From an uncultured Bacteroidales bacterium (GTDB taxonomy: Bacteria; Bacteroidota; Bacteroidia; Bacteroidales; P3), in NCBI GenBank assembly GCA_905234665.1, contig CAJOIV010000008.1, positions 1,799 through 65,798 of the forward strand: a stretch of 64,000 nucleotides of DNA, given 5' to 3'. The position numbers and the translations under genes were made by a program. This document shows, piece after piece, positions 13,001-34,277 of this stretch. Below the pieces are notes generated by a model. It saw only the letters and a list, made by a program, of their open reading frames with translations, was not told where the DNA came from and searched no databases. Position 1 is the first letter of the stretch. Each line of letters opens with the position of its first letter.

Positions 13001-16000
13001 GACACTACGGCAGCCGTATACGTCATTGCCATAGAGGGTGTAGAGATGGCTGCCCACCGTGGGCGGGAACGCCTGCGTGCTTGTCTGTGTGAATGACAGT
13101 GTGTTGTCCCACGAGTAGGTGGCGGCGCCCGCGCCGGTGAGGTGCAAGGTGTCTCCGTCGCAGAGTTCATAGCGGTCGGGGGTGAGCGTCACATTGGGCA
13201 GGGGGCGCACCAGGACCTCCACCGTGTCCGTGATGCGGCACAGGCTGTCGGGTCCCGTCGAGGCGCTGATGACATATTGTTGTGTGCCCACATTGTCGGC
13301 GGCAAAGTTCCAGGTCACCATCTGGCCACTGCCCGTGGTCTGCTGTACGCCTGCGTGTCCATCGCCCCAGTAGCTGTAGCGGATGGGTGGGGTGCTGCTG
13401 GCGGCTGTGGCCTGCAGGGATAGGGTTTGGTGGTGACACAGGGCGGTGTCGTCCATCACCGTAAGGGTGGGACGCTGGAAGACTGTCACGGTGATGCTTC
13501 CGTTGTTCTGACACCGTACATTGCCTTCCGTGATGCCCGTCACGCGGTAGGTGGTGGTGGTCTGGGGGGCGAAATGCTGGGTGGCGTTGCTGTCGTTGGT
13601 CAGGGGGGTGTTGTCGCCCTGGATGTACCAACGGAATCCGCTGGAACCGCCGATGCCAGTGTTGGAAGCTGTAAGTGTGACGGTATCGCCTTGGCAGATG
13701 GCGAAGGCCGAGGGGGTCACCTGTATCTGCGGGAGGGGCAGGACATGGACGGTCACAGTGTCCGTGGCGTCGCATAGGCCGTTGGCGAGGCGACCGTGGA
13801 CAATGAACTGGGTGGTGGAGGTGAGGGTATAGGTGCGGATGGCAGAAGTGCTGAAGGCTTTGCCGTTGACGGAGTATTGTGCTGCGCCGCTGAGGGTGAG
13901 GGTCACCTCGTCGCCCGCGCAGATGGTGTCGGCCGAGGTCACGACATGCACCACGGGATAGCTGAACACCTCGATGCTCCTCTGCACATGGTTGTTGCAT
14001 GCATGACGGCTGTTGCTGCCCCACAGGTGGAGGGTGTCGCGCCCCACAATGGGGAGAGGTATGGTGCTGAGGTAGGCATTAGTGTAGGGACCCATCCACG
14101 AGGTATTGTCCCAGCTGTAGTAGCGCGCCCCTGTGGCAGTACGCAGCAGGCTGTCGCCCACGCAGAACTCCGTCTGCGGCAACTGGAGGTTGACTGTGGG
14201 TACACTATGCACCACGACAGCTTGTGAGGCTGTATTGTGGCATTGGTTGCTGTCGGTGGCAATGACGGTATAGGTCACCGTGGCGCTGTCGACATAGGCA
14301 TTGGTGGGGCGCACATGGGCCGCTCCGCCCGACTGTGCGACGATGTTACTCCCGCTCCATACATAGGATGAAGCCCCCATGGCTGTAAGCACTGCCGTGT
14401 CGCCACTGCAGATGACGGCGGGCGAGGCCGTCGTTGTCAGCACAGGCAGAGGGTAGCGGTCCACCTGCACGGTGTCAGCTACTTGGCAGAGGTAGCCAGG
14501 TCCCCTCGAGGCGTGGATGACGTACACTGCGCTGTCTGCAGGTGTCAGGGTCCATCGGGCTTGCGACCCCAGGCCAAGGGCCGTGCCGCTGCCGCCCTCC
14601 ACGGTGTACCAATAGGTGACTCCGGAGGCTGTGCGGGGCGTGGCGCGGAGCACGAGCTGGTCGCCGGCACACACTCCCGAGTCGGGCATAGCCGTCAGTG
14701 CGGGATAGTTATAGACGTTGATGTTCACCGTGCGACGGGTGCTGCAGGGCGAGTAGCCTGTCGACACACCCTCTACGGTGTATTGTGTCGTGCTTGTCGG
14801 CGTTACGATGAGGGTGTCGCCATGTTCTCCCAAGGGTGTTGTGCTACTGCCCACTGTCCAGTTGTAACTGCTTCCGCCAGTAGCCACGAGGGTGGCGCTC
14901 TGGCCGTTGCAGAGGTTGGTGTCCGAGGCCGTGAGAGTCACCGAGGGCAGCGCCAGCACGCCTATCCGGATGGTGTCGCTGCTGATGCAGATGTGGCTGG
15001 CCGTGCGGCCATAGACGGTATAGGTTGTCCCTGTCCCCGTGGGGGTTACGGTGCGGGTGGCCGAGGTGGTGAAATGTAGCGTGTCGCCCAGCGAGTACTC
15101 GGCAGCCCCGCTCAGGTGCAATGTGGTGCTGTCACCGGCACAGACGCTGTCGGCCTCGGCAGTGATGCTCACCACGGGATAAGCCAGCACGTTGACCTGT
15201 GCTTGTCCGCGGCTGTTGCAGCGTTCCAGGGTGTTGTACCCCCAAGCGTAGAGGGTGTTGAGGCCTACGCTGTCAAGAACGCGGTTGGTTGTTGCCGAAG
15301 TCTGCACTCCCGTCCATGTGGATTGGTCCCACGAGTAGCGGCGGGCTCCCGTGACCGTAAGATGCGCCATGCCACCCACGCAAAGAGGCGTCGGCGTGGC
15401 CGTCAGGGTGACTGTCGGGACACTGTGCACCTGTAGCGTTAGATTCTGCGTGTTGGTGCAACCATGGACATCTGTGCCTTGCAACTGATAGGTTACGTTA
15501 CTTGCAGTGGTGGCGTTGGTATTGGTGTTCGTCACAGTGGTGACAGCGGTGTTGGCTATCGTGGTGGAGCCTCGTTTCCAGGTATATGTTGAGGCCCCTC
15601 CGCCTGTGAGGGTCACCGTCTCGCCCGAACAGGCGGGCGAGGGGTTGGCATTGGTGGTCAATGTGGGCTTGGGCCATACGGTCACATGCACCGTGTCGGT
15701 CACCTCGCAGGTGACATAACTACCTCCTGTGGCGGCATGGATGATGTAGTCTGTGCTGGCCGTGGGTCTGAGGTTGGTCCATTCGCCTGTCGACCGACGC
15801 GAGGTGTTTCCGTTGTGCCAATATTGCACTCCCGAAGCCGAAGAGGGAACCGCCCGCAAGGTAAAAGTAGCCGTGGTGCATATTTCAACATCGGGCGAGG
15901 CCGACAGTGTGGGGTACTTGTACGAGTAGATGGTGACAGTCCTGTTGGTTAGGCAGTGGCGAGGGGCAGGCCCTTGAACATACAGCTGTACCGTGGTTGA

Positions 16001-17938
16001 AGAGGAAGACCCTGTCGTGGTAGCCTGGGTGGGCCAGACGCTGTGTGTATCAGGATCGCCAAAAGGCCCCGACGTCCCCCAGCGGAGGGTACTGGTCGAA
16101 GCATGGGCGGCACGCAGGTGCACGCGCTGGTCGTTGCATGTGTAGGTCGTCAAGTTGCCTGTCGAATTGCGGTTGTGGTCTTCGTCGTAGAGGGTCACTG
16201 TCGGCAAAGCCTCCACGTAGATGTAGTGCCGCCGCGTATTCATCCAAGTCATTCCCAACGTGTCGTGGTAGGCCACAAGGGTGTATATCCTGGTGCCGGT
16301 GATTGTCGGTGTAGTGAAGATAGGACCTGTGGCGACGGGCGAGGTGGAGGTGTTTGTGCCGTAATACCACTGGTATGTGGTGGCACCGCTGCAGGTGAGG
16401 GTGGCCGTGGAACCGTTGCACACGGTATCGTAGTGCGTGGCGGTGTCAATGAATATGGGCGTGGGGCCCACGGCGCAGGGGCTGCAGGTGGTGGTGCCGC
16501 AAGCGTCGGTGACGCAGATATTGTACTGCCTCAGGGGCTCCAGTGGCACGACGATGGACGACTGCCCTCCCGTGCCGGTGGTGTACACCGTGTCGCCCGT
16601 CAGCAGGTTGACCCACGTGTAGGTGTAGGGAGGCACGCCTCCGGTATTGTAGGCTATAATGGTGACGTTGGTTCCCGTCTCGCCGGGCAGGGGCGTGTTC
16701 AGCGACAAGGGTACGACATTGACGATGCCGAAAGTGTCAATCAAATAATTGCAGTCGTGTACCAACTTGTAGTGCAGCCGGAAATGCTCTAAAGCCTCGT
16801 AGATTTCGTCGGCCGTGCCGCACAGGTGGAACACCAGCGAGTCCACCCCTTCGGGGAAGGGTATCAACGATGGCCGTGCAGGCGTGGCAGACACCGCGGG
16901 TGTCAAGGTGTAGTCCCCGTTGCCAGCCCCCAGGTTGGTACGGTAGATACTCAGCGTATCGCCTTCCGGGTGGGAGATCAGTTTCTTCACTATTATGTCG
17001 ATGCAGCAAGTCTCCTTCACTTCGTGCGAGGTGGTCTCCGACGAGTCGCTGGTTCTGATTGAGAGCTCCAGCGACTTGGCCGAGAAACTCTCCGACTCAA
17101 GGAACACGCCGCTGTCCACGCTGGAGTCGTTCACATCGGAAATACTGATGCGGATATGGTACAACTGGCATGGGATAACCCTTATCGAGGCCGTCAGCAC
17201 CGACGTGAATCCGTCGTACTCCAATTGGGCGGTCGGCCACATCGTAGGGTCTCCATAGGGGGCGCCGAAATTGTCGACGAAGTAGGCGGAGTTGCGTATC
17301 TGGTTTACGTTGTGCACGCTGACGGGCATGTCCACCCCGGGTATCTTGGCGATATTGGTGTCCGAATAGGTACCGCCGCCCGGCTTGGGACCTGACACAA
17401 AGAAGGCGAAGATGTCGTTGTACTGCGAGTTGATATACTCCGGGTATTCCTCCGAGGCAAACACATAGCGGAATCCCACGCTGTCGGTCTGGGGGATGAA
17501 GTCGAACTCTAGCACCGAGGTGTTGTACAACCCTACAGATGCTCCCGCCATCGATTGCAATGAGGTGTCGGTATAAGAGCTGCAATGGTAGTTCGAGGTG
17601 ATACGCTCACTTGTGTTGGGGCCTGGCGCACCCGTGATGCTGCCGGTGGTCAGCAGGATGCCCTCGCGCAACCCCATATTGGTGGTGGCGGCATTGCTGT
17701 CGGTGTAGAATGTGCCGATGGCGTCGCAGCCTATGACGCCTGTCGCACCGTTGAACCTCACATTGCTCACCTGCACACCTTGCCCCACCAGGATGTTCTG
17801 CACAAGGTCGGTAGCCGTCCATGCGCGGCCTTGGGTGCAACTCTGCACATGCAGGCTGCTCTGGAACACCTGGCCGTGGCCCACGGCAGGCATGGCCAGG
17901 GCGGCAAGGAGCATCAGGTATCGGAGTGCGCGCCTCAA
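7031..17938 (-). CDS. Giant (3635 aa) cell-surface protein: signal peptide, choice-of-anchor-L-like N-domain, about three dozen Ig-like Cys-containing repeats, T9SS type-B C-terminal sorting domain
   Basis: N-terminal region: ...LEFDFIPQTDSVGFRYVFASEEYPEYINSQYNDIFAFFVSG...YDGFT...SDVNDSSVDSGVFLE. Reiterated unit: C-x-G-[DG]-[ST]-[VA]-x-L-x-A-x-G-[AG]-x-x-Y-x-W. C-terminus: VFTPNEETNNRFYVP...HVEIFNRRGLKVYESDDPDEGWDGR...ATYVYRV, the gliding-motility-associated / type-B CTD pattern. Confidence 0.9.
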   Translation of the reverse strand: MRRALRYLMLLAALAMPAVGHGQVFQSSLHVQSCTQGRAWTATDLVQNILVGQGVQVSNVRFNGATGVIGCDAIGTFYTDSNAATTNMGLREGILLTTGSITGAPGPNTSERITSNYHCSSYTDTSLQSMAGASVGLYNTSVLEFDFIPQTDSVGFRYVFASEEYPEYINSQYNDIFAFFVSGPKPGGGTYSDTNIAKIPGVDMPVSVHNVNQIRNSAYFVDNFGAPYGDPTMWPTAQLEYDGFTSVLTASIRVIPCQLYHIRISISDVNDSSVDSGVFLESESFSAKSLELSIRTSDSSETTSHEVKETCCIDIIVKKLISHPEGDTLSIYRTNLGAGNGDYTLTPAVSATPARPSLIPFPEGVDSLVFHLCGTADEIYEALEHFRLHYKLVHDCNYLIDTFGIVNVVPLSLNTPLPGETGTNVTIIAYNTGGVPPYTYTWVNLLTGDTVYTTGTGGQSSIVVPLEPLRQYNICVTDACGTTTCSPCAVGPTPIFIDTATHYDTVCNGSTATLTCSGATTYQWYYGTNTSTSPVATGPIFTTPTITGTRIYTLVAYHDTLGMTWMNTRRHYIYVEALPTVTLYDEDHNRNSTGNLTTYTCNDQRVHLRAAHASTSTLRWGTSGPFGDPDTHSVWPTQATTTGSSSSTTVQLYVQGPAPRHCLTNRTVTIYSYKYPTLSASPDVEICTTATFTLRAVPSSASGVQYWHNGNTSRRSTGEWTNLRPTASTDYIIHAATGGSYVTCEVTDTVHVTVWPKPTLTTNANPSPACSGETVTLTGGGASTYTWKRGSTTIANTAVTTVTNTNTNATTASNVTYQLQGTDVHGCTNTQNLTLQVHSVPTVTLTATPTPLCVGGMAHLTVTGARRYSWDQSTWTGVQTSATTNRVLDSVGLNTLYAWGYNTLERCNSRGQAQVNVLAYPVVSITAEADSVCAGDSTTLHLSGAAEYSLGDTLHFTTSATRTVTPTGTGTTYTVYGRTASHICISSDTIRIGVLALPSVTLTASDTNLCNGQSATLVATGGSSYNWTVGSSTTPLGEHGDTLIVTPTSTTQYTVEGVSTGYSPCSTRRTVNINVYNYPALTAMPDSGVCAGDQLVLRATPRTASGVTYWYTVEGGSGTALGLGSQARWTLTPADSAVYVIHASRGPGYLCQVADTVQVDRYPLPVLTTTASPAVICSGDTAVLTAMGASSYVWSGSNIVAQSGGAAHVRPTNAYVDSATVTYTVIATDSNQCHNTASQAVVVHSVPTVNLQLPQTEFCVGDSLLRTATGARYYSWDNTSWMGPYTNAYLSTIPLPIVGRDTLHLWGSNSRHACNNHVQRSIEVFSYPVVHVVTSADTICAGDEVTLTLSGAAQYSVNGKAFSTSAIRTYTLTSTTQFIVHGRLANGLCDATDTVTVHVLPLPQIQVTPSAFAICQGDTVTLTASNTGIGGSSGFRWYIQGDNTPLTNDSNATQHFAPQTTTTYRVTGITEGNVRCQNNGSITVTVFQRPTLTVMDDTALCHHQTLSLQATAASSTPPIRYSYWGDGHAGVQQTTGSGQMVTWNFAADNVGTQQYVISASTGPDSLCRITDTVEVLVRPLPNVTLTPDRYELCDGDTLHLTGAGAATYSWDNTLSFTQTSTQAFPPTVGSHLYTLYGNDVYGCRSVDTTQITVYGYPTTQLVSNLYDICHGSTVALTASGAQHYSWDGGASWRNAQPATGVDTLTRILYDSITLYVEGYNLSPLCQVRDSVRIRVYSYPVMTWVADTNQICLNDTVHLTATGAIQYSFDNGVTWGDGNTVSYVPTTPTTHSYRVIGRSEGPGCQTPVDINIQVHPLPNLQLSVSNSAFCIDSVITLTATGGERYRLYQTTDTVIPTYSTTSQWVEQPDSSRTYIVDCLTQFNCFATTQHSIEVWTGRFQLFCEDTIVCEHGHVAVSAQGMQYYYWNGSTIPDTHNVYIFTVDTSSDFTVYGTDSHGCHGEETLHVDVYPNPHLQLAADTLGTCVGGTVNILASGAGEYIYHWDSPVPTIDSTHPALVTDTTWFTVTGIEGNLRCHSTDSIQIIAYPLPPVGLTGDQRDICDGDTLVLTATGADRYSWVEGSTYQPGNTRTDVPTADSIYLVWGEEDTYHCRNYDTTFVHWFGHPAVSLTAERTKLCQGDSVLLTFGNAPFYDFQHSGSLVTATSIVVHPDTTTLYHLHADLRNPRFCGSDTTLLIEVFPIPDVHVAAPDTELCYGDTVTLTGTGAAYYAWLDDTAHLVPDTLRVPMYHSSTLHLSGTIPNRLCYNEDSIHVTVYDPRVRLNPQAWEICNGGSLIISATGSDRYRWTDDGDFTDSTSHTYTFSSNGSVSSQTFIHVAGETANHLCQADTTISIVVYPGPNIHLTIEDVDSIGPRTWEVCAGDSVTFFATGGYFYQFPGQTEATRPVRCLYHPQPTGPDTSVYVLYGENFNHQCSGYDSLTIIVNPLPDVSLASSRLMVCEGDSVRLAASGALRYSWFGPGNFGDDTVRTVAVDTTMQFLLWGRDQKLCRNYDTLTVTAFPFPQVHLTASADTICQGFSTTLTVTGGTAYAWMRDYPHDINYVSQNSITISPMHDTVVYVWGNNFNGLCATLDSLRITVLPVPTVQIMADRNAICWGDTAHLTASCSESTWSWDDGPYGSTGIDVAPNDSTWYHITTRAANGCYAYDSILVEVKPFYNVHLHGDTNVCSGDSLWISATGSNLYAWGSETAFGTEAGRFVTPLHDTLIIVRGTPRDSVCRVADTLPIHVHQRPNLYVDPETTTVCLGDSIILSASGCEQYLWMDETEFGLHNGYHVYRPQQTMTYIVTGSMPGGVCVVTAPIEMIVIDTPIVQFYGPTDICLGDSVRLTASGGERYAWQGGEYTTSGYLHDMPDTLGAFTYHVASRVHSLNCTGRASVTVNVHPVPVLTLSADDSVLCYGESATLFAEGAYQYSWTMGNNYTLSDQRIVTPPQTTTYIVYATDSMMLCADTQDLTIIVNPLPIVTLTPDTTEFCLGGSLSLAASGADAYAWTHSTPAGASFGNVTSQTLTPQSDTVVNVWGIDSNGCINRDSVYITLHTPFQPYQHDGHHVAVHRYPIVTATVNRSQICLGDSVTVRGSGAQHYRWLDYMGSTANPIYDIPKANRVYTVEGSMDYGCPDTATVEVEVFLYPPVSLQAADTLLCDGDTLHLFASGAPRYFWPGATTFGTDSTYNIVPPVGTHTFVLNGATDNLLCAASDTIRITVYPYPDMAIHGATRWCEGSEVTLAVENPADTLWWTSTPADASLAGQEHADTLHLYPAASTLYHLRGKSHICAVEIDHQVEIVPYPDLALHTSADRICTGDTVLLTATGGELYSWLGLPAGTGVYTPQDSILYKPRATGFFPVLATTYDTLCSVVDSIFIFVDTVPIMTITGSDSGCIGRTVTLEAHSDVPVIWNSEPYDPALDTQASMFTIIVSPTDDIRYMITGYSGLCMGSAEHQVTTGIIPRAKGAALPSRVRRGEADIELVNQSISAEGFYWLFPDSSMHYGDHYQYQIPPSWLADTFLIQVVAYRSGCSDTADIPVTLYNDEVWTSNVFTPNEETNNRFYVPTLNKTNFHVEIFNRRGLKVYESDDPDEGWDGRSKGILCPQATYVYRVRTSPKGSKEVNYQYGTVTLIR

Positions 17939-17950
17939 CGTCTTCGGGTC

Positions 17951-19447
17951 TTAGTTTTCAATTGTCCATGTGGCCCCGTCTTTGCCGTCCTTCACGCTGA
18001 TGCCGATGGCTTTCAGTTCGTCGCGCAGGCGGTCGCTGGTGGCCCAGTCCTTGTTGGCCTTGGCGGTGGCGCGGATGTCGAGGATGAGCTTCATCAAGCC
18101 GTCGAGCACTGCCCCCTGGGTGTTGCCGTCGGCGGCCAGCTCGTCGCGGAGACCCATCACGTCGAACAGGAAGGTCTCCATCACGCTGCGCAGCTCGTCA
18201 ATCTGCTCCTGGCTGAGGCTGGTCTTGTGGTCGGCGGCCGAGTTGACCACGCGGGCCAGGTCGAAGAGGTGGCTGATGACGATGGGCGTGTTCAGGTCGT
18301 CGTTCATGGCATCGTAGCACAGCTGGCGGTAGTCCTTGAGGGTCGGGTCGGCTGTCGCGCCGGGGGTCAGTTTTCTGGCGGTCTTCACTGCCTCCATCAG
18401 GCGGTTGTATCCTTTCTCGGCGGCCTGCAGGGCTTCGTTGCTGAAGTCCACCGTGCTGCGGTAGTGCGCCTGCAGGATGAAGAAACGGATGGTCATCGGG
18501 CCGTAGGCCTGTTCCAGCATCTCTTTGCCGTCCTTGTCTTTGTGGCTGCCCTTGAAGAATTCTTCGAGGGTGATGAAGTTGCCCAGGCTCTTGCCCATCT
18601 TCTGCCCGTTGATGGTGATCATGTTGTTGTGCATCCAATAGCGGCAGGGGCCGTGGCCGCATACCGAGGTCTGCTGCGCCAGCTCGCTCTCGTGGTGGGG
18701 GAACATGAGGTCCATGCCGCCCCCGTGGATGTCGAAGGTCTCGCCCAGGTACTTGGTGCCCATGGCGGTGCACTCGGTATGCCAGCCGGGGAAGCCGTCG
18801 CTCCAGGGCGAAGGCCAGCGCATGATATGCTCCGGCGAGGCTTTCTTCCACAGGGCGAAGTCGGCCGTGTCGCGCTTCTCCTCCTGCCCGTCGAGGGCGC
18901 GGGTGGTGGAGAGCATCTCGTCCACCTTGCGGCCACTCAGGCGGCCGTAGGTGTGGAAGTGCTCGTGGTATTTGCGCACGTCGAAGTAGACGCTCCCGTT
19001 GCTCACGTAGGCGAAGCCCGCGTCGAGGATTTTCTTCACCAGCTCTATCTGCTCGATGATGTGACCCGAGGCATGGGGCTCGATGCTGGGGGGCAGCACC
19101 CCGAGGGCTTCCATGGCCAGGTGGTAGCGGTTGGTGTAATACTGTGCCACCTCCATGGGCTCCAATTGCTCCAGACGGGCTTTCTTGGCAATCTTGTCCT
19201 CGCCTTCGTCGGCATCGTGTTCCAGATGGCCCACGTCGGTGATATTGCGCACATAGCGCACTTTATACCCTATGTGGCGCAGGTAGCGGAAGAGGATGTC
19301 GAAGGTGATGGCGGGGCGGGCATGACCCAGATGGGCGTCGCCGTACACCGTGGGGCCGCACACATACATGCCCACATATCCGGGTGTGATGGGCTTGAAA
19401 AGTTCTTTTTGGTGCGACAGTGTGTTGTATATCAGCAGTGGCTGCAT
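17951..19447 (-). CDS. cysS: Cysteine--tRNA ligase
   Basis: [18 protein letters not shown] (HIGH region), KMGKSLGN (KMSKS), length 498 aa. Confidence 0.95.
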
Positions 19448-19530
19448 AGTCTTGTGGTGTGTTTGGTGTTATTGATTGTTAGTTAATTGCATGCTCTCCC
19501 GCGCCCCTGCGGGGGCGGGAGTACACGCTG

Positions 19531-19538
19531 CAAATATA
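19531..19538 (-). promoter_or_regulatory. Candidate Bacteroidota -7 box (TATATTTG on the minus strand) for cysS
   Basis: Matches TAnnTTTG, 84 nt upstream of the cysS ATG. A GC hairpin (19496-19520) lies in the predicted leader. Confidence 0.35.
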
Positions 19539-19743
19539 CACAAAAGTTTTTGTTCCGCGCCTGTACGCGCGAAAATATTTTGTGTGGGGAAGGTCCGTGG
19601 ACGAGTATTTCGTCTGTGGATATCCACGCTTTCTGGCCGTTGCCGCGTGCGGCCCACATAGACGGTGCCCCGTTGCGGAGCCTCCGCACCCTGCAAAACT
19701 AATGCCAACTGAAGAAAAAAATTGCCAGATAAAGAAAAAAACG

Positions 19744-19751
19744 TATATTTG
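19744..19751 (+). promoter_or_regulatory. Candidate -7 box TATATTTG
   Basis: Matches TAnnTTTG, about 54 nt upstream of the ATG at 19805. Confidence 0.35.
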
Positions 19752-19804
19752 TACTTGGAAAGAAAAGCCACAGAATAATATAAATCACTAAATCACATAT
19801 AGAT

Positions 19805-20551
19805 ATGAATAGAAAAACTATTGTATTTGTCCTTGCCATGCTCCTCGTGGGGCCAGTCGTGGCACAGGATGTCATCACCCTGAGAAGCGGTGACGAAATT
19901 AACGGAAAGGTCACCAAGGTGACTCCCACGGAAATAGAGTACAGACTCGCTTCCAATCCTGACGGACCCATCTACACCAAACCCGTTTCCGAGATTTTCA
20001 TGGTAAAGTATGAGAACGGCCAAAAGGATGTCTTTGGCGATACTCCCGCCCCAGCCGCACAGCAACAGCAGGTGACCGTTGCCATTCCCGTCGGAGTGAC
20101 CCTGGAGCGCAGCCGTGGTGAGATTGTCGATGCCGCCACCGATAGGACTTTCTCCGATTTTGAGCTGCAGCAGATGCTCGGCAAGGATGCCTGGAACGAC
20201 TATGAGAAGGCTCGCGACAGTTACAAGTCGACGAGCAACGGATTGGTCTGGGCCTACCTGTTTTTCTTCCTCGGGCCTCCGTTGTACTATGGTGGTGTAT
20301 ATCTTGAGAACGGCACCAACAACGGCCTTGCCATGCGTATTATAGGTATCGTATGGACTATCGGCGGCAATATCATGATACCTGCCAACTATATCACCCG
20401 CGGCGTGGCGGCAGGCAAAATCAGCCGTATTGCTGAAGGGTACAACGCCCAGCACAGCAGTCTTGGAATGAATCTGTCGGGAGGATTCACTCTGATGCCT
20501 ACGGCACAGGGTTCCGTAGCCCCCGGTGTCGGTCTCTCGCTACACTTCTAA
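19805..20551 (+). CDS. Hypothetical secreted/membrane protein
   Basis: Signal peptide MNRKTIVFVLAMLLVGPVVAQ, then hydrophobic segments in the C-terminal half. No family recognised. Confidence 0.55.
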   Translation: MNRKTIVFVLAMLLVGPVVAQDVITLRSGDEINGKVTKVTPTEIEYRLASNPDGPIYTKPVSEIFMVKYENGQKDVFGDTPAPAAQQQQVTVAIPVGVTLERSRGEIVDAATDRTFSDFELQQMLGKDAWNDYEKARDSYKSTSNGLVWAYLFFFLGPPLYYGGVYLENGTNNGLAMRIIGIVWTIGGNIMIPANYITRGVAAGKISRIAEGYNAQHSSLGMNLSGGFTLMPTAQGSVAPGVGLSLHF

Positions 20552-20579
20552 TTACATAATGCCGCAGTCGTAGGGGACG

Positions 20580-21413
20580 ATGATACGCGACGAGGAAACG
20601 GGATACGGATATTTCGGTGCACGCTATATGGACCACGAGCTGATGACAATGTGGCTCTCCGTCGACCCGATGGCAGACAAGTACCCAAGTATAAGTCCGT
20701 ATGCCTATTGCGCCTGGAATCCAGTGAAGCTGGTGGATCCGGATGGGAGAGACTGGTATGAACCTGAAGGAGGTGGTGAAGCTATATGGAGAAAGGGTAA
20801 CTCTAAAGAAATAACACAGGATGGTGTTAAATATCAAAATGTTGGACGATACTACACAAAAGTTAATGGAAAGATATTGACACATTATGACCAGAACAAC
20901 ATACTTGGCACAACAGACTTAAATAGTGATATCGGAAAGAAATTTAGCATGTTGGCAGCTGAAGGTGGGTGGGTAAAAGATAAGAACGGGAAAACAGTAC
21001 GTGAGTCTCAGTATGGTTTATACATTATTGGTGCTTCTATGGAAAACCGGTTGAAGAATCCTAAATTCTTTAAGAATAATGGCACTTACGAAAGTTTATT
21101 TACTTCAAAACAATACAATGGGGCAAATAATAGCACGTATAAAAATTTGCCATCAAAAATAAGTCAATGGAAGCAGTGGTATGGAACCAAGGATGTCATG
21201 AACTATCTCAATGCTGTATACAATGCTGCACATGGTAATTGTGTTGACATATTAAGCAAACAATATGGTTTCTCTGATGCCTACAAAATCTTAGGATATG
21301 CCCACAGCGAAGCCAATCTGTTTGGAAAGAAATCAATCAACCTGAATTTTGATAAGGGGAACACTCTTATCAAGACTGTTCAATCAAGTTTGTATGTTTT
21401 TCCAAATAATTAA
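20580..21413 (+). CDS. Orphan Rhs C-terminal cassette 1: end of the Rhs core plus a variable toxin domain (possibly SleB-like cell-wall hydrolase)
   Basis: Starts MIRDEETGYGYFGARYMDHELMTMWLSVDPMADKYPSISPYAYCAWNPVKLVDPDGR, the Rhs-associated core end with its DPxG demarcation, followed by unrelated sequence. There is an in-frame TAG two codons upstream of the ATG, so no Rhs shell is attached. Confidence 0.75.
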   Translation: MIRDEETGYGYFGARYMDHELMTMWLSVDPMADKYPSISPYAYCAWNPVKLVDPDGRDWYEPEGGGEAIWRKGNSKEITQDGVKYQNVGRYYTKVNGKILTHYDQNNILGTTDLNSDIGKKFSMLAAEGGWVKDKNGKTVRESQYGLYIIGASMENRLKNPKFFKNNGTYESLFTSKQYNGANNSTYKNLPSKISQWKQWYGTKDVMNYLNAVYNAAHGNCVDILSKQYGFSDAYKILGYAHSEANLFGKKSINLNFDKGNTLIKTVQSSLYVFPNN

Positions 21414-21418
21414 ATGAT

Positions 21419-22147
21419 ATGAAAAAAATATTGTTTATAACTTCTATCTTTCACTCAATCATTGTTTTATTGAGTTGCACCTCAAGTCCTACCCTCACTT
21501 GTAGATATGCAAAATATGTATCAAATGAAGAACTCTCGAAGTATGAATTTATCAAACAATTCAATAAAGATATTTATGCATTAACGTTCAAAGAAGACAC
21601 CTTGCCATATCTCATAAGCACTGATAGTTTGTTTAAGATTGACTTGGGAGGTGATTCATTTTGTTTGTACTACAACAACAGTCTGCAAAAGAATACCGGG
21701 TGTGTTTTATGGGGCGAATTCCAAGGAGACAAGATGCACATCCTAACATTCAATCATATTTCTTCCATTGACGCTTTTGTCGCCCACGATTATAATATCC
21801 TTAGAGTGGAAGAGGAAAATATTTCTTTTGGCGCACCACGGACAGTCAAAACAAATTATCTGTTGTTCTCTAAAAGCAATGACACTGTTAAAGCCTTGAC
21901 TCTATTAGCAAATACATACACATTGTTAGACACGTCAAAAATTGTACTAGAGGACGAGTTTCGCTTTCCCCAAATAATCGTTCATGGCGTAATTGATACT
22001 TTATCAGTAGAATTTGCAATTACTATTACTGGGGATTTCACAATTCCCAGTAATGATTGTCCCAAAATTTGGAATTTGCGACCCATTGTAGAAAAAAAAT
22101 ATTTGATTCCAAAAGTATATAATTACGAAATTAAACAAAGAGAATAG
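21419..22147 (+). CDS. Candidate immunity protein for cassette 1 (lipoprotein)
   Basis: Lies 5 nt downstream of the toxin ORF and is AT-rich. Lipobox-like leader MKKILFITSIFHSIIVLLSC. Assigned by position only. Confidence 0.5.
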   Translation: MKKILFITSIFHSIIVLLSCTSSPTLTCRYAKYVSNEELSKYEFIKQFNKDIYALTFKEDTLPYLISTDSLFKIDLGGDSFCLYYNNSLQKNTGCVLWGEFQGDKMHILTFNHISSIDAFVAHDYNILRVEEENISFGAPRTVKTNYLLFSKSNDTVKALTLLANTYTLLDTSKIVLEDEFRFPQIIVHGVIDTLSVEFAITITGDFTIPSNDCPKIWNLRPIVEKKYLIPKVYNYEIKQRE

Positions 22148-22212
22148 TATACTACTTCAGATTATTAGGAGGAATTAATGATTAGCATATGTTATAGGGT
22201 AAAGTAATCTGA

Positions 22213-23085
22213 TTGATGAGCCAACAAGGACATAAAACAGAGGGGGTGAAACGCATTCAAACCATGTGGTTTTATTCCTTTATTTTCACCGGCAAAGAAC
22301 GCGACGAGGAGACGGGGTATGGGTATTTCGGAGCGAGGTACATGGACCACGAGCTGATGACCATGTGGCTGTCGGTTGATCCGATGGCGGATAAATATCT
22401 GGGGGTTAGTCCGTATGCCTATTGTGCGTGGAACCCAGTGAAGCTGGTGGATCCGGATGGGAGGGAGATATGGAAACCTGAAATGTATCGCAATGGTGAC
22501 ATTTATTACAGACAAGAGCATGGCGATAACATATCAACACTCCAAAAACAATATGGGCTGTCCGAGGATCAAGCAAAGAAATTATATGGAGCAAAGAAAA
22601 ATGGGAGAATCTCAGGTGAAAGTGTTAATAGAACCATCGGAAGCCCTATCTTAAAGGTTGATTGGAACCATGCTAATGATGAACAAAAAATCTATCAGGC
22701 CTTTTTTGCAATTCTACATGGAATATCGATAAGACGTGGTGCAAAAGCAGATATGAATAATTTTTTTTCAAACCTACCGCATATAAATGGTTACAAACGC
22801 ACAACAAGAGGATGGATGGGCATTTCGGATAATGTCATAGATATACGGGGAAACTTTCTTATACCATTAATGGATGGGAATGAGGTGGTTGCGAAATATG
22901 CTTCATTGACAATATCTCAAGAGTCATCTGTAGTCGCCAATCCACAACCACCTAGTCAAATTGAAGTTCTTAATTCTAAGTCCGATTGGAAACAAGTATT
23001 TTGCACGGGTTCAGGCAACTATCCTAAGATAACAATAATACTAAGCGATGATAATATTGAGGATTATCTCAATAGCTACTATTAA
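22213..23085 (+). CDS. Orphan Rhs C-terminal cassette 2 with a different variable toxin domain
   Basis: ...FIFTGKERDEETGYGYFGARYMDHELMTMWLSVDPMADKYLGVSPYAYCAWNPVKLVDPDGRE, then novel sequence. No YD repeats upstream. Confidence 0.75.
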   Translation: MMSQQGHKTEGVKRIQTMWFYSFIFTGKERDEETGYGYFGARYMDHELMTMWLSVDPMADKYLGVSPYAYCAWNPVKLVDPDGREIWKPEMYRNGDIYYRQEHGDNISTLQKQYGLSEDQAKKLYGAKKNGRISGESVNRTIGSPILKVDWNHANDEQKIYQAFFAILHGISIRRGAKADMNNFFSNLPHINGYKRTTRGWMGISDNVIDIRGNFLIPLMDGNEVVAKYASLTISQESSVVANPQPPSQIEVLNSKSDWKQVFCTGSGNYPKITIILSDDNIEDYLNSYY

Positions 23086-23150
23086 TCAGCGTATTATTCT
23101 CTAATGATACTTTGTTAACATTGCATACAAACATTAACAGATAGCCCCAT

Positions 23151-23756
23151 ATGAAAAGATCATTTCGTTCTGTTGTAATAACAATTGTTATTCTGATAAT
23201 GATTACATCATGCAAAATGCAAGAAAATATACCCTCAACAATATCTATACGGGAATTCTCATCTATTGATTACCCTATCATTTGTAGCCTTGATTCATTA
23301 GTGAGTTTACTTGGAATGCCTGATTCTTCATTTACTTATCAAAACAAAAAAATTATATTCGATTCTTTGGGGAGAGTTCTCGGTTGTTACCCATTCACCG
23401 TGTATCGTTACCCAGATAGCTATAGGTCATATACGGTATGTAATGACTCTGCCGAATTATTTTATATCAACCTCAGGCATAATGATAACAGTATTCGTTT
23501 TAGGAATGCTCTTTTGGATGGGAATACAACAATGCGGCAGATAAACAAGCTATTGAATGTATGCGATGACGACTATGGCCGTATAGAGGATAAGGAAACA
23601 TTGTTGGGTTATAGTGATTATGGCTATTTATTAATGTATTTTGGGGAAGAATATCCCCTCTTAGGTAGTGTTTCATTCTTTTTTGACAATGAGAGGAAGT
23701 TGATTTATATTGAGCTTTCTTGCCCTCCTGGTAGTATCGTTTATCATTTCCAATAG
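23151..23756 (+). CDS. Candidate immunity protein for cassette 2 (lipoprotein)
   Basis: Directly downstream of the toxin ORF. Leader MKRSFRSVVITIVILIMITSC. Assigned by position only. Confidence 0.5.
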   Translation: MKRSFRSVVITIVILIMITSCKMQENIPSTISIREFSSIDYPIICSLDSLVSLLGMPDSSFTYQNKKIIFDSLGRVLGCYPFTVYRYPDSYRSYTVCNDSAELFYINLRHNDNSIRFRNALLDGNTTMRQINKLLNVCDDDYGRIEDKETLLGYSDYGYLLMYFGEEYPLLGSVSFFFDNERKLIYIELSCPPGSIVYHFQ

Positions 23757-24243
23757 AAACGTTCATATTTTCATGTTCAACAAGGTGATATACACCATTT
23801 ATAACAAAACCCATAGTGAAGTCGATTATTCACCATTTTCTCGATTGTTTTCCCTCTTCCCCTTCACCGGGAAAGGCCCCCGCAAGGGGTGGCGAACACC
23901 GCTGAATAGAATCAAATATAGTGAGCAACGCGACGAGGAAACGGGGTATGGGTATTTCGGAGCGAGGTACATGGACTACGAACTGATGCCGATGTGGCTG
24001 AGTGTCGACCCGATGGCGGACAAATACCCCAATGTTAGTCCATACAATTACTGCATGTGGAATCCGGTTATGCTGTTGGACCCAAACGGAGATAGTGTTG
24101 CTGTATTATTAGCAAGAGGAGGCACCTATGGTGTAGGACATATGGCAATACTCATACAGAATTCAGATAATAAATGGGAATTATGGTCTGAAAATGGTGG
24201 TGAGATGCCTTTACTTGGTAAGATATCTGGCCGTCCCATGTAA
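23710..24243 (+). pseudogene. Orphan Rhs cassette 3, truncated
   Basis: Rhs homology begins near 23858: PFTGK, then an 18-aa insert, then RDEETGYGYFGARYMDYELMPMWLSVDPMADKYPNVSPYNYCMWNPVMLLDPNGD. Only about 50 aa of variable region follow before a stop at the AT-rich/GC-rich boundary. There is no immunity ORF. The first about 50 codons of the track ORF overlap the previous gene and are probably not coding. Confidence 0.6.
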
Positions 24244-24277
24244 TAAATTATATAACACAACAATAAGATAACTGAAT

Positions 24278-25159
24278 ATGGCAACCATCACCAACGACGT
24301 CGCATTATTGAAGGCGAGGCTCAAGGGCCTCGGGGTCACCGTCTACACACGCAACGGCGTGACGGTGGTCCGCACCGCGACACGCCGCACCCCCCAAAAG
24401 CAGTCACTCAAACAGTTCAAGCATCGCCAGCGGGTGCGCCACGCCATCGCCCTCTGGAACGCCTTTCCCCTCTGGGCCAAACCCCACATGTTCAGTCCCG
24501 ACAGGAAGATTGCCTACAATGTCTTCGTGCGTTGCAACACCCCGCTGGACCATGTCTACCTCACCCGCCGGCAGTCCATGCACGGATGCGCCCTGCTCCT
24601 CCCGGGCATGCGTGTCTCCGAGGGGTCTGTCCCTCCGGTGGAATACCATTTCGAGCAGCTGGAGGACGGCCGCCGCATCCTCCTCACCAACCTGCGCACC
24701 GGCATCGACGAGTCGGTGACGCGCCCCCTCGTGGCCCGGACCGGCCGCGAGTGGTACGACCTCTTGGTCAAGGGGCGGCGCAATCCCGACCTCAAGCCCG
24801 GCACCGTGCTCTCTGTCTATGCCATCACCCAGCAGAAAGACCTCGACGGCCCCCGCCTGAGTGTGACCCGCCACGAGGTGCCGTTGTTGCGCGAGGACCA
24901 TCCGGCCAAAGGCTTCGACGGCCTGACGTTCTACACCCACAAGGGCTTCCTCGCCCTCTACGGTGTGGACGACGAAGACGGTGGCTGGGCGGTCTCCCTC
25001 TACCGGCAGGACAAGGGCGACGCCTCGCCGCAGACGGTGGCCACCACCTGCACCCTCTATCGCCGCTATACCACCGACAGGGCCCTGCGGGCCGCCGTCA
25101 AGAGCTTCGGCAAGATAGAGGATTCCGCCCCCAACACCTCACCCGACCCCTCCCTGTGA
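24278..25159 (+). CDS. Hypothetical protein (GC-rich, basic N-terminus)
   Basis: 293-aa ORF with a normal amino-acid mix. The overlapping alternative frames are Pro/Arg/Gly junk. No family confidently recognised. Confidence 0.55.
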   Translation: MATITNDVALLKARLKGLGVTVYTRNGVTVVRTATRRTPQKQSLKQFKHRQRVRHAIALWNAFPLWAKPHMFSPDRKIAYNVFVRCNTPLDHVYLTRRQSMHGCALLLPGMRVSEGSVPPVEYHFEQLEDGRRILLTNLRTGIDESVTRPLVARTGREWYDLLVKGRRNPDLKPGTVLSVYAITQQKDLDGPRLSVTRHEVPLLREDHPAKGFDGLTFYTHKGFLALYGVDDEDGGWAVSLYRQDKGDASPQTVATTCTLYRRYTTDRALRAAVKSFGKIEDSAPNTSPDPSL

Positions 25160-25195
25160 CTTCCCCCGCGGCAGCCCCCTCCCGCCGTAGCCTCT

Positions 25196-25384
25196 CATCC
25201 GTATCAAAAACGGATGAAACCCGCATCAAATTCGCTTCAATTACGCCTCAAACCCAGTTCATTTACGCCATTTATATTATTGTTGTCTTATTGTCCATAA
25301 TATAAATGGCGGGTTTGATGCTTCTCAAAAGCGTTTCAAGTCCCTTTCAAATCCGCGTCAAATGTTTCTTAACATCGGGTGAAA
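25196..25384. repeat. 11-bp phased T(C/G)AAA..CG repeat array flanking a 15-bp inverted repeat
   Basis: T[CG]A motifs at 25204, 25215, 25226, 25237, 25248, 25259, then 25325, 25336, 25347, 25358 and 25380, all in one 11-nt phase. Inverted repeat 25266-25280 / 25297-25311 in the centre. Small hairpin at 25196-25216. Confidence 0.7.
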
Positions 25385-25391
25385 GGCAACG

Positions 25392-25601
25392 TTGCAGACG
25401 GCCTCGGGACAGGCGGTGCTGTACTCCTCGTTTCCCATCCGGCAGGTGACGGTGTATGACCCCGCGGGCCGCCGTGTCCTGCACCGGCGCGTGGACGACA
25501 GGACCTTCCGCCTCGACCTCTCGGGATATGCCAAAGGCACCTACCTTGTCGTTGTCCGCACCCCGGCAGGCCGCACCGTGAAACGCCTCGTGGTGCAGTA
25601 G
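25392..25601 (+). pseudogene. Orphan T9SS type-A C-terminal sorting domain (remnant of a cargo gene)
   Basis: VLYSSFPIRQVTVYDPAGRRVLHRRVDDRTFRLDLSGYAKGTYLVVVRTPAGRTVKRLVVQ resembles the CTDs of the 1734-aa and 814-aa proteins. There is an in-frame stop at 25380 and only a TTG start, so there is no cargo part. Confidence 0.6.
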
Positions 25602-28429: not shown

Positions 28430-28509
28430 TTTGTTCTATAACGCGCCCTTTACTTTTTTATTGTGGGGTATTGTAGGCGCATAGATTCAATCGTCAAATA
28501 TTAAGGCCA

Positions 28510-28806
28510 TCATGATTCCACATCACCAACCTCCTTTGTCCCTTGATCTTTTTTGTCAGTTCTCGTAGTTCTGTTCTTTCTATCCCTTGCGAACTCACAA
28601 ATCAGATACACTACCAGTATCAATAGAAAGACGAAATGCAGGTTCAGGTATCTGAAGTAGGTATCAAGGGCTTCGGGAGAAAACCATGTCACATTGTATT
28701 TTATATCTACACCTACTTCGAGAATGAATCCAATATGGAATAATATGCTCAGAAGAGCAGCAACAATGAGTACAACCCTCGTGACTTTAAGAATACGGTC
28801 AATCAT
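28510..28806 (-). CDS. Small hypothetical membrane protein (3 predicted TM helices)
   Basis: 98-aa AT-rich ORF, hydrophobic. A candidate -7 box lies upstream. Confidence 0.45.
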   Translation of the reverse strand: MIDRILKVTRVVLIVAALLSILFHIGFILEVGVDIKYNVTWFSPEALDTYFRYLNLHFVFLLILVVYLICEFARDRKNRTTRTDKKDQGTKEVGDVES

Positions 28807-28882
28807 ATAGCATGGTCAGTTATTTGGTGAAAGAGAAGAGTATTAGACATTTGTGCACACTTGGAACAATTGCGGTGTTTTG

Positions 28883-28890
28883 CAAAGATA
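28883..28890 (-). promoter_or_regulatory. Candidate -7 box (TATCTTTG on the minus strand)
   Basis: Matches TAnnTTTG, 77 nt upstream of the ATG at 28806. Confidence 0.35.
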
Positions 28891-29005
28891 CACAAATTCC
28901 TCGACATAAAGAATAGGGACTATAGAGCTGTAGTGGCTGTAGGTGGGATAGAGAGGATCGAGAGACTGAATTCAGATTATTTCTTCTCATGTCGGGGAAA
29001 AATCG

Positions 29006-29013
29006 TATCTTTG
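29006..29013 (+). promoter_or_regulatory. Candidate -7 box TATCTTTG
   Basis: Context GGGGAAAAATCGTATCTTTGCAG, 53 nt upstream of the ATG at 29066. Nearly the same string recurs at 36747-36770. Confidence 0.4.
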
Positions 29014-29065
29014 CAGTGTATTTGTTATGGGAAAATAGGAATAATAACATTAAAACCAATATAAT

Positions 29066-34270: not shown

Positions 34271-34277
34271 CACTGCC

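Follow-up and report, generated by a model that had tools for sequence, protein, structure and literature searches.

The Rhs elements of E. coli possess an AT-rich tip beside GC-richer conserved DNA. The closest described counterparts of the locus analyzed here are the orphan rhs-CT/rhsI modules of Enterobacteriaceae (Salmonella LT2, E. coli, and Dickeya), in which a core fragment runs to DPxG, with a variable toxin and then a small immunity gene behind it (PMC3967940, PMC3150448). The Salmonella orphans have no conserved start (PMC3967940), and Rhs toxins of Salmonella have been shown to be expressed internally as type II toxin-antitoxin (TA) modules (PMC7043789). The present study concerns a 3.7-kb AT-rich block (20580-24243) of an uncultured rumen Bacteroidales metagenome-assembled genome, located in a 64-kb stretch of DNA, the whole of which is called the window hereafter. 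We consider it likely that this block represents silent reserve cassettes of an Rhs/Tc-type toxin, with immunity genes that are possibly useful to the host. Since the layout is common in the lineage, the array is a well-documented case of an already known kind and not a new system.

Three co-oriented ORFs (20580-21413, 277 aa; 22213-23085, 290 aa; 23710-24243, 177 aa) lie in the block. Its GC content is 0.33 to 0.41 (500-nt windows, 21000-24000) against 0.58 to 0.66 in the flanks, which agrees with the original prediction, made from the sequence alone, of an AT-rich block between GC-rich flanks. That prediction had also placed the block between cysS and decayed DNA. The cysS gene indeed lies upstream, but a gene for a 248-aa signal-peptide protein (called as 237 aa; 19805..20551, + strand) intervenes, ending 29 nt before cassette 1; it is 98.8% identical to its sister-strain copy. 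This protein is unrelated to the T9SS-tailed partner of the full-length genes. The downstream side is not decayed: the ORF at 24278..25159 (+ strand, 293 aa) is GC-rich, intact, conserved, and outside the AT-rich block. In other species, relatives with 31 to 35% identity immediately follow arrays of this kind on the 3′ side, and a Pfam search of this ORF gave no match. The sole Bacteroidetes-type −7 motif on the + strand, TATATTTG (19744-19751), lies upstream of the 248-aa gene, and none was found on this strand inside the array. Transcription reading through from the 248-aa gene might cover cassette 1 and its immunity gene.

Each of the three ORFs begins in the end of an Rhs-associated core and becomes unrelated to the others after DPxG, as had been predicted. 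The TIGR03696 (Rhs_assc_core) profile matched all three shared segments significantly, with 43.9, 53.5, and 43.1 bits (cutoff 32.5), the coverage being partial, from about positions 10-24 to 75 of 76 (the C-terminal 52 to 66 or so). Similarity is gone right after the G of the demarcation NPVKLVDPDG(R) or NPVMLLDPNG(D). The residue that follows DPxG is R or D, not the L of the PxxxxDPxGL pattern, and the same is observed elsewhere in the lineage. At the DNA level, ACGCGACGAGGA is the sharp left limit of the homology, which extends as far as the DPxG codons. The direct repeats of about 163 nt that had been noticed earlier were located as a family at 20585-20768, 22299-22482, and 23928-24111. Their shared core end comprises 162 nt, i.e., 54 codons (RDEETG...DPxG), the last of the Rhs-associated core; the retained piece spans 54 to 60 codons. 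The copies are 75 to 83% identical over the 162 nt, with almost all differences synonymous (pN/pS 0.05 to 0.18, pS 0.64 to 0.81 between the three). The core ends have therefore diverged under coding constraint and are separate acquisitions rather than products of local duplication. Perfect identity between the repeats extends over no more than 17 to 36 nt, a borderline length for RecA-dependent exchange inside the array.

The claim that the 64 kb holds no YD-repeat shell was borne out, and no shell debris was detected either. PF05593 matched neither the cassettes nor the large ORFs of the window, as expected of a shell-less fragment, and the four largest ORFs encode T9SS cargo or helicase. When two full-length relatives (2,994 and 2,966 aa) served as tblastn queries, the three core ends were recovered from the window and nothing else at E<1. 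Thus, no shell ORF is fused upstream of the cassettes or present elsewhere in the window.

Among the three predicted cassettes, the first two are intact toxin-immunity pairs, but the third is a truncated stub. Cassette 1 (20580..20747, + strand) starts with ATG ATA, followed by core end 1 (20586-20747, RDEETG...DPDG), and the TAG described two codons ahead of its ATG is present. It is cut at its 5′ side exactly at ACGCGACGAGGA and lacks a leader, while other copies of toxin 1 carry FTGKE and the leader. In the sister strain, the left junction is the same up to about 20602, beyond which identity is only about 80%; the ATG is conserved there. Toxin domain 1 (20748..21413, + strand, 220 aa) belongs to a small family, nine clusters among 5.8 billion proteins. 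Pfam and PDB sequence searches found no match for it, and its AF2 model (pLDDT 69) no fold match. One relative of toxin 1 (P0198) has acquired a signal peptide. Immunity gene 1 (I1; 21419..22147, + strand, 242 aa) starts 5 nt past the toxin stop and encodes a lipoprotein-type signal (…VLLSC); family searches gave no match. I1 accompanies toxin 1 in an unrelated context, locus L005 (98% identity), where the pair (97 to 98% amino acid identity) is joined to a far more diverged core end (pS 0.30 versus 0.046). Toxin 1 compared with this copy shows a pN/pS of 0.24.

In cassette 2, core end 2 (22300..22461, + strand, RDEETG...DPDG) is followed by toxin domain 2 (22462..23085, + strand), which is intact, about 207 aa long, and has a weak LysM-like N-terminal motif (weak match to a LytE LysM repeat, E 0.07). 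Its homologues are 280 to 430 aa long, with 92% coverage. The AF2 model has a pLDDT of 91.2, and the fold matches no solved structure (best PDB fold match E 0.047, TM 0.15). Immunity gene 2 (I2; 23151..23756, + strand, 201 aa) also encodes a lipoprotein-type signal (…MITSC), and a relative with 60% identity lies beside a toxin-2 homologue in L013. Cassette 3 comprises core end 3 (23929..24090, + strand, RDEETG...DPNG) and a 3′-truncated toxin stub of 50 aa (24091..24243, + strand), with no immunity gene. The stub aligns with residues 1 to 36 of a roughly 190-aa toxin domain in L155, the only homologue found; there, a 250-aa lipoprotein gene follows.

The two toxin genes (T1, T2) and I1 and I2 are intact and frameshift-free in several independent assemblies. 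The toxin genes show pN/pS values of 0.24 to 0.44, i.e., purifying selection similar to that on the immunity genes, which could also mean a stand-alone function. Judged by sequence, the toxins of the window carry no signal peptides. In view of the lack of a shell, a signal peptide, or an export domain, the toxins would not be packaged or delivered from this locus. The lipoprotein signals on the immunity proteins, together with a Peptidase_M23 toxin in the sister strain, hint at the cell wall, and we infer the periplasm or cell wall as the toxin target.

Cassettes 2 and 3 are preceded by leader B, a conserved non-coding element derived from a hairpin. In cassette 2 (22210..22299, + strand), it runs from stop-TTG through CATAAAAC, the hairpin, and a T-tract, and ends in the FTGKE junction; the copy of cassette 3 (23773..23874, + strand) is diverged and has an FTGK junction. 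The leader is near neutral (pN/pS 0.88 versus 0.15 for the core end), so it is non-coding, and the orphans, like those of Salmonella, would have no conserved start. The apparent N-terminal 25 residues evolve neutrally, a stop codon directly precedes TTG in 18 of 40 leader-B copies, and 11 of the 40 have no ATG in frame ahead of the FTGKE junction. Silent sites show stronger conservation in the leader than in the core end. In the hairpin, 74% of cells are paired against 38 to 50% when the pairing is slid; covariation support is modest to weak, and RNAalifold returned no consensus. The hairpin of the cassette-2 leader is partly decayed (−15 kcal/mol, z −1.8; best copy −31.2, z −6.3), and the fold of the cassette-3 leader is not significant (z −0.27). 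No description of such a conserved non-coding leader was found in the literature searched.

The full-length relatives (L052, L057) are fused TcB/TcC-like proteins of about 3,000 aa with SpvB, FG-GAP, TcdB_toxin_midN, RHS, Rhs core, and toxin domains. A T9SS-tailed protein of 455 to 481 aa is encoded upstream of the full-length genes, and no TcA-like gene was seen. Among 51 assessable arrays, 32 are shell-less, the commonest state, and seven have a full-length gene, each followed by one to three orphans; related loci also form a continuum of 5′-truncated rhs genes. At the orthologous locus of another species, linked to aroB, AK (aspartokinase), and SmpB (L041), the array starts with a full-length gene (≥2,235 aa). 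For this reason, the shell has probably been lost at the window locus. The aroB-linked locus of a further species (L056) retains a 5′-truncated remnant of 510 aa, and the synteny thus backs the proposal that the donor locus is distant or lost. The sister strain has the same flanks (96% identity) but different cassettes, including the M23 peptidase toxin; near-identity breaks off after the first 18 nt of the core end, and homology resumes at 24241. This break and the occurrence of the T1/I1 pair on another core-end lineage in L005 indirectly support the idea that recombination uses the core-end repeat.

Taken as a model, the block may be the tail part of a polymorphic-toxin locus of the rhs type, with no main gene. 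The delivery protein of the lineage would be a TcB/TcC-like cocoon of about 3,000 aa, in which the last 54 core codons precede a variable toxin and an immunity gene. Homologous recombination in the core-end repeat would swap in new toxin/immunity modules, and the displaced ones would pile up downstream as orphans, each behind a hairpin-derived non-coding leader, up to a terminal pseudo-cassette with a 52-nt junction element. At its aroB-linked locus, this strain has a 5′-cut cassette 1, an intact cassette 2, a terminal stub as cassette 3, and no shell gene. The toxins would serve as spare parts, of use only once joined by recombination to a full-length gene at another place in the genome or in the population. 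If transcribed, I1 and I2 could still protect against neighbors that deploy these toxins.

This last point leads to a reading that partly overlaps with ours, in which the block is kept since I1 and I2 guard against toxins of neighboring Bacteroidales and the toxin parts are passengers, by analogy with acquired interbacterial defense clusters. The excess of shell-less over full-length arrays, the intactness of I1 and I2 and their company with the toxins across genomes, and the low GC and co-orientation resembling the rAID-1 criteria (10.1101/471110) all suit it; the stub without an immunity gene is also a cassette without a toxin. However, pure immunity islands usually shed their toxins, and in both intact cassettes the toxin domain is full length and under purifying selection similar to that on the immunity genes. 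Moreover, no XerD-like recombinase is listed in the Pfam table of called genes within ±10 kb, and no promoter-like motif precedes I2. We regard this reading as possible but doubtful. Far less probable is that the short ORFs are translated and act as intracellular TA-like pairs, as reported for the Salmonella orphans, or are exported without a shell. Internal expression has the Salmonella precedent, the cassette-1 ATG is conserved in both strains, ORFs of about 290 aa are called throughout the family, and the toxin-1 relative with a signal peptide fits shell-free export. Against this, the neutral N terminus, the stop-TTG copies, and the missing ATGs of leader B all speak, as does the absence of signal peptides from the window toxins; a lipoprotein immunity protein would sit in the wrong compartment for a cytoplasmic toxin, and an M23 peptidase has no cytoplasmic target. 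It also appears unlikely that the block is the inert, decaying remnant of a former rhs locus. The missing shell, the cuts in cassettes 1 and 3, the decayed window hairpins, and the continuum of truncated genes would suit such a remnant, but four intact genes in independent assemblies, a pN/pS below 0.5 among close relatives, and a locus that turns over between strains rather than eroding would not.

The 52-nt junction element (GGCCCCCGCAAGGGGTGGCGAACACCGCTGAATAGAATCAAATATAGTGAGCA; 23875..23928, limits ±2 nt, + strand), lying in frame between FTGK and RDEETG, raises a different prospect: that it and the hairpin are att- or attC-like sites at which a recombinase acting in trans moves units, homologous recombination alone not being the mechanism. 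The element is single copy in the window, strictly array-associated (67 of 74 metagenome copies lie behind the FTG junction), and, by manual tally, is the mark of the final unit in about 18 of 22 arrays. An 85-nt island holding it is 97.6% identical to the sister strain between diverged sides, the 3′ edge of the element is the exact cut point of cassette 1, the CCCC/GGGG stem of the element is kept with a variable loop, and the conserved silent sites of the leader point the same way. But no integrase or recombinase was found beside the window array or other arrays with inspected gene tables, nor any recombinase domain in the neighbors. The element is missing from most cassettes, is always in frame, and is present in an apparently full-length core (L084), so that it may simply be an insertion that is tolerated; the predicted fold lacks significance (z −0.96), it has no Rfam match, and covariation in the hairpin is weak. 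We therefore judge site-specific capture improbable. Only slightly better are the prospects of a dedicated Tc/Rhs cassette system of rumen Bacteroidales, with self-insulating mobile units (core end, toxin, immunity gene, hairpin leader) and the 52-nt element, of which no description was found in the literature searched, as the recombination or landing site of an unlinked enzyme. If true, an integron-like logic without an adjacent integrase would spread toxin and immunity modules across species.

Reserve cassettes remain our preferred reading, and they compare with known systems as follows. The likeness to the Enterobacteriaceae orphans in core fragment, toxin, and immunity gene holds for cassettes 1 and 2 only; shared further are arrays of displaced modules, core homology as a recombination substrate, and probably the absence of a conserved start and export signal. 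As in E. coli Rhs elements, an AT-rich tip adjoins GC-richer DNA. Unlike in those orphans, the main rhs gene is not adjacent in the window (it is in L041 and seven other arrays), cassettes of the lineage are separated by the hairpin-derived leader, and arrays end with the 52-nt element. The core piece is short and uniform (54 to 60 codons), whereas the stretch common to the Salmonella orphans and the main gene is 522 bp, and the parent protein is a TcB/TcC fusion, in contrast to the PAAR/VgrG-linked T6SS Rhs proteins of enterobacteria.

The recombinase-associated defense clusters (rAID-1) of Bacteroidales (10.1101/471110; PMC12247911) likewise have co-oriented short genes with GC ≤41%, immunity genes, and conserved intergenic sequences, and the window has five co-oriented ORFs in this GC range (rAID-1 calls for ≥2). 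In contrast to rAID-1, the window toxins come from the Rhs/Tc family and not from T6SS effector loci, there is no XerD-like recombinase, and full toxin genes are retained in the cassettes along with the Rhs core ends. Integron cassettes (ORF plus attC hairpin) also form promoterless co-oriented arrays of repeated units ending in an imperfect hairpin. However, the integrase and attI are absent here, the units share about 160 nt of coding homology, enough for homologous recombination, and the hairpin of the lineage, unlike attC, resembles an A-tract/stem/T-tract terminator. The domain order of the full-length relatives, from SpvB to the variable toxin, is that of the Tc-toxin BC cocoon and the “TcdB/TcaC-type” polymorphic toxins (Zhang et al. 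2012, PMC3482391), and the window cassettes are the counterpart of the TcC core end and hypervariable region. In contrast to Tc BC, a single ORF of about 3,000 aa combines B and C, a T9SS-tailed protein instead of a TcA-like gene was seen upstream, and the window has no shell. Furthermore, the payloads are paired with immunity genes, which, unlike Tc BC, points to antibacterial use.

The block at 20580-24243 is a shell-less orphan array of a Rhs/Tc-type polymorphic toxin locus, with two intact modules and, at its end, a stub; the original prediction of an orphan Rhs array was right. Three co-oriented toxin-like ORFs on the forward strand (20580-21413, 22213-23085, and 23710-24243) open with the end of an Rhs-associated core. 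The first two are followed by small ORFs in the same orientation (I1, 21419-22147, and I2, 23151-23756, both on the forward strand). All three toxin-like ORFs score above the curated cutoff of TIGR03696 (Rhs_assc_core, NCBIfam), covering the last ~52 to 66 of its 76 positions; Pfam gave no match for any ORF of the array. At their 5′ ends, the toxin-like ORFs share a three-member direct repeat, with core ends at 20586-20747, 22300-22461, and 23929-24090; DNA similarity among copies 1 to 3 sets in sharply at ACGCGACGAGGA and ends at the DPxG codons. Thus, both the repeat search and the DNA alignment bear out the predicted repeats and the unrelated sequence past DPxG. The anticipated TAG two codons 5′ of the cassette 1 ATG is present, and the block is indeed AT-rich (GC 0.33 to 0.41) between GC-rich flanks (0.58 to 0.66). 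The 64 kb also lacks a YD-repeat shell, as expected. Its four largest ORFs are unrelated (a CHU_C/Ig T9SS giant, two PKD/fn3 T9SS cargo proteins, and a helicase), and tblastn with full-length relatives of 2,994 and 2,966 aa returned the three core ends only and nothing else at E < 1. The prediction erred on the downstream flank, which it took for decayed DNA; an intact, conserved, GC-rich gene lies there (24278-25159, forward strand), whose 293-aa protein has no Pfam match.

When the core ends from 75 genome loci were sorted, 90 arrays resulted. Of these, 32 consist of orphans alone, with no shell in 3 kb or more of DNA on the 5′ side; a 5′-truncated rhs gene (150 to 999 codons) heads 12, a full-length gene is found in seven, and 39 are not assessable owing to contig ends. 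On metagenome contigs, shell-less arrays occupy unrelated chromosomal settings, beside sufCD, ileS, and grpE/dnaJ. Therefore, considering the array-state counts together with these unrelated contexts, the layout of the window is the commonest state in the lineage. The array toxins most likely serve as silent reserve cassettes, and the immunity genes I1 and I2 may still be useful.

The cassettes belong to a large family. The protein collection contains 3,790 relatives of cassette 2. The best 120 of them are all short (161 to 457 aa, mostly 275 to 310 aa), have ~85 N-terminal residues in common, and vary at the C terminus (Toxin-JAB1, Peptidase_M91, M23, and unknown domains). Species-representative genomes (one genome per species) hold 293 cassette sites, and the best 75 of these lie almost entirely in Bacteroidales/Bacteroidetes MAGs from the rumen and other herbivore guts. 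The window gene order itself recurs in several metagenome assemblies. Carriage of the cassettes by phages was rejected, as no relatives were found in viral contigs. Rhs/Tc-type cassettes thus appear as a large, actively exchanged gene pool of uncultured rumen Bacteroidales, with most copies parked away from any delivery gene.

What a delivery gene looks like can be seen at related loci. A core-end motif scan of 75 genome and 13 metagenome loci (L001-L088) gave 186 matches, and at seven genome loci the frame stays open for 1,921 to >2,770 codons 5′ of the motif. The complete genes at L052 and L057 encode fused TcB/TcC-like cocoon proteins that combine SpvB, FG-GAP, TcdB_toxin_midN, RHS/YD repeats, the entire Rhs core, and a Peptidase_M91 toxin; this architecture corresponds to the "TcdB/TcaC" class of polymorphic toxins (PMC3482391). 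Full-length genes are usually trailed by one to three short cassettes, and GC at these loci falls from host-like to ~0.37 directly past the core end. Directly 5′ of the full-length gene, L052 (362-1729), L057 (415-1860), and five other loci encode a conserved 455- to 481-aa protein bearing a T9SS sorting domain, which may act as a surface partner instead of a TcA component. The 248-aa gene upstream of the window array was considered as a remnant of this partner and dismissed, having no similarity to it.

In seven other species (L031, L032, L034, L040, L041, L056, and L068), an array adjoins aroB, and at some of these sites aspartokinase and smpB come next. At the head of the L041 array lies an ORF of 2,235 aa or more, which shares 55% identity with a full-length gene over 2,088 residues, and the L056 site retains a 510-aa 5′-truncated rhs remnant. 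The simplest reading is that the window locus once had a main gene and then lost it. A sister strain (L089, 188-kb contig) has flanks 96% identical and a different array content, namely, an M23-peptidase cassette, a 169-aa secreted immunity protein, and a 108-aa terminal stub; the strain-variable segment corresponds to 20747-24240 of the window. On the left side, the two strains are near-identical across the 29-nt spacer, the ATG, and ACGCGACGAGGAAACGGG. Past ACGCGACGAGGAAACGGG, identity drops to ~80%, with mainly synonymous differences, which places a crossover inside the first ~18 nt of the core end.

Pairwise, the three core ends of the window differ by pS 0.64 to 0.81 and pN 0.035 to 0.117, values that point to a long divergence under protein-coding constraint and to independent acquisitions rather than local duplications. 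Exact matches among the three repeats span 17 to 36 nt, which is marginal for within-array exchange. T1 and I1, the toxin region and immunity gene of cassette 1, are 97 to 98% identical at the amino acid level between the window and L005 (toxin pS 0.046), and the core ends next to T1 differ by pS 0.30. The pair thus sits on a different core-end lineage in L005, which amounts to mosaicism at the core/toxin boundary. Against their nearest homologues, T1, I1, T2 (the cassette 2 toxin region), and I2 show pN/pS of 0.24, 0.35, 0.44, and 0.33, respectively. Since toxin and immunity genes are both constrained, they are not pseudogene-like.

Cassette 1 lacks everything 5′ of RDEETG; other T1 copies (at least 89% identical) have FTGKE and various leaders. 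The T1 domain family comprises nine clusters, and no match to the domain was found in Pfam, PDB sequences, or a fold search. Its motif AAEGGW...ASMENRL...QYN raised the possibility of a SleB/CwlJ-like cell-wall hydrolase; we rejected this assignment in view of a mediocre model and the lack of any Pfam, PDB-sequence, or fold match. A 341-aa relative of toxin 1 (P0198, on a 14-kb JGI contig) begins with a signal peptide and retains just the final ~35 residues of the core end; it looks like a cassette turned into a stand-alone secreted toxin. Cassette 2 is intact when set against its homologues. The AlphaFold2 model of the T2 domain (22462-23082) is confident (pLDDT 91, pTM 0.88) and has no significant match among solved structures, so T2 may represent a new toxin fold. 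Any assignment to a known fold was dropped, as the best PDB matches were noise and a LysM-like motif at the T2 N terminus was weakly supported (E 0.07). Cassette 3 keeps 50 residues past DPNG. A search of the protein database gave no homologue of this stub; the only one came from a local tblastn search of a metagenome locus. It aligns to the first 36 residues of a ~190-aa toxin domain in L155, where a 250-aa lipoprotein gene follows; therefore, cassette 3 is 3′-truncated and its immunity gene has been lost. The lipoprotein-type signals that open I1 and I2 end in LLSC and ITSC, respectively. Along with the M23 toxin found in the sister strain, these signals suggest cell-envelope targets for the toxins, and T2 and the lipoprotein immunity partners make a candidate for a new toxin/antidote pair of the cell envelope. 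PADLOC defence-system models gave no match.

The sequence 5′ of the FTGKE junction falls into recurrent classes: true Rhs core, class B, and at least two others. Class B is very common and is read by gene callers as (M/L)xxxxHKTEGVNRTQTMRFYPFVF; in the window, cassette 2 has a class B leader and cassette 3 a diverged copy. Forty class B copies align gap-free to a consensus of A-tract, 21-bp interrupted stem, 9-nt loop, and T-tract. The best copy (L006, 1845-1905) folds at -31.2 kcal/mol (z -6.3), and paired cells over 39 copies reach 74% versus 38 to 50% when slid. A conserved RNA was rejected, as RNAalifold found no consensus and the covariation was modest (its score reached by 6 of 500 shuffles); the window copies fold with z -1.8 (cassette 2) and -0.27 (cassette 3). 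We thus claim a decayed ancestral hairpin, short of a proven structured RNA. Treated as codons, the leader gives pN/pS 0.88 and pS 0.37 versus 0.15 and 0.75 for the adjoining core end, which identifies it as non-coding DNA whose conservation is at the nucleotide level. The N termini of annotated ~290-aa proteins are probably artefacts; these pipeline-called "RHS repeat-associated core domain-containing proteins" start in non-coding DNA and are probably not stand-alone. From its shape, the leader may serve as a terminator for the toxin-immunity unit before it; each displaced cassette would then be insulated.

The Bacteroidetes-type -7 promoter motif is TAnnTTTG. It does not occur on the forward strand within the array; the nearest copy, at 19744, lies 5′ of the upstream 248-aa gene, from which cassette 1 and I1 could, tentatively, be read through. 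A sigma-70 style promoter/terminator scan was uninformative for Bacteroidetes.

Cassette 3 has a net gain of 51 nt between FTGK and RDEETG, a 52-nt junction element (23875-23928, limits ±2 nt) standing in place of one base. The element is single-copy in the window, and Rfam over 19400-25400, at E up to 1, gave no match there or elsewhere in that range. At the genome loci, the element again lies behind this junction, in the last unit of ~18 of 22 arrays (manual tally); what follows is either a core end or just ACGCGACG before unrelated sequence begins. JGI metagenomes hold 74 exact-pattern copies, 67 behind an FTG junction and 54 behind the leader hairpin; 29 run on into a core end, and 28 have ACGCGACG (RDEE) but no recognisable core end. 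This placement makes it an array-specific element. A genome-wide mobile repeat (REP/RPE-like) was rejected, as nearly all JGI copies sit at the cassette junction and the window has one. Between window and sister strain, an 85-nt island with the element is 97.6% identical, both sides having diverged. Its 3′ edge coincides with the 5′ cut of cassette 1, and it is always in frame, once inside an apparently full-length core (L084). The junction element may be a recombination or landing site, or it may be a tolerated insertion that an old terminal pseudo-cassette has kept.

Further insertions and neighbours were noted at related arrays. In L005, direct repeats with a variant of the 52-nt element (16689-16740 and 18170-18221) flank an ATPase gene, and ATPase genes (ATPase_2, or AAA_14 with DUF4143) recurrently adjoin arrays (L005; L155, 2040-3359; L011, 5491-6600). 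Terminal pseudo-cassettes carry other small conserved insertions in the core end (L006, 3667-3730; L039; L042; L155, 1650-1720; L096; L112; L151). One lies past RDEE and reads AAAGAA(G/A)...GGGTCC.CGGACCC TTCGCCAGCGAGCGAGG; another is a 30-nt block between GYGY and FGARY.

Relatives of the 293-aa downstream protein (31 to 35% identity) occur 3′ of AT-rich arrays, in the same orientation, in four other species (L040, 5989-6747; L056, 8751-9509; L053, 13193-13909; L022, ~4125-4823). L053, where a MurF-like ORF follows, and L022, where aroB, aspartokinase, and smpB were not detected, look non-syntenic. Identification of the 293-aa gene as DUF6266 was unsupported; in L041 and L068, a different array-adjacent gene, at the equivalent spot on the other strand, matches DUF6266. 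A 69-aa ORF (25392-25601, forward strand) encodes a T9SS Por_Secre_tail sorting domain and nothing else; it shows 100% conservation in the sister strain and looks like the orphaned C terminus of a lost T9SS cargo gene. A second strain-variable site lies 3′ of smpB, <10 kb from the array, with 810- and 817-aa genes in L089 (14906-19799) versus 1,734- and 814-aa genes in the window (29066-36722). The latter (29066-34270 and 34278-36722, forward strand) are adjacent large T9SS cargo genes with PKD, fn3, and Por_Secre_tail domains, a pair that starts in a lower-GC stretch (0.40 to 0.47, 28500-29500). Beside cysS, 7031-17938 (reverse strand) encodes a 3,635-aa protein with repeated Ig-like (CHU_C-associated) domains and a CHU_C type IX signal.

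The literature searched holds no description of these rumen Bacteroidales arrays. Low GC and co-orientation are common to the window array and rAID-1; however, rAID-1 needs a XerD-like recombinase (10.1101/471110; PMC12247911), which is absent among the neighbouring genes here. In anatomy, the window cassettes match the orphan rhs-CT/rhsI modules of Salmonella, which are described as having a partial core and no initiation or export signals and as being activated by recombination with the main gene (PMC3967940). Toxin-antitoxin-like internal expression has been documented for the Salmonella orphans (PMC7043789), but this fits poorly with the periplasmic immunity proteins here. Only the leader hairpin and the junction element could set the array apart from known orphan modules, and both provide concrete handles on how such arrays are built.
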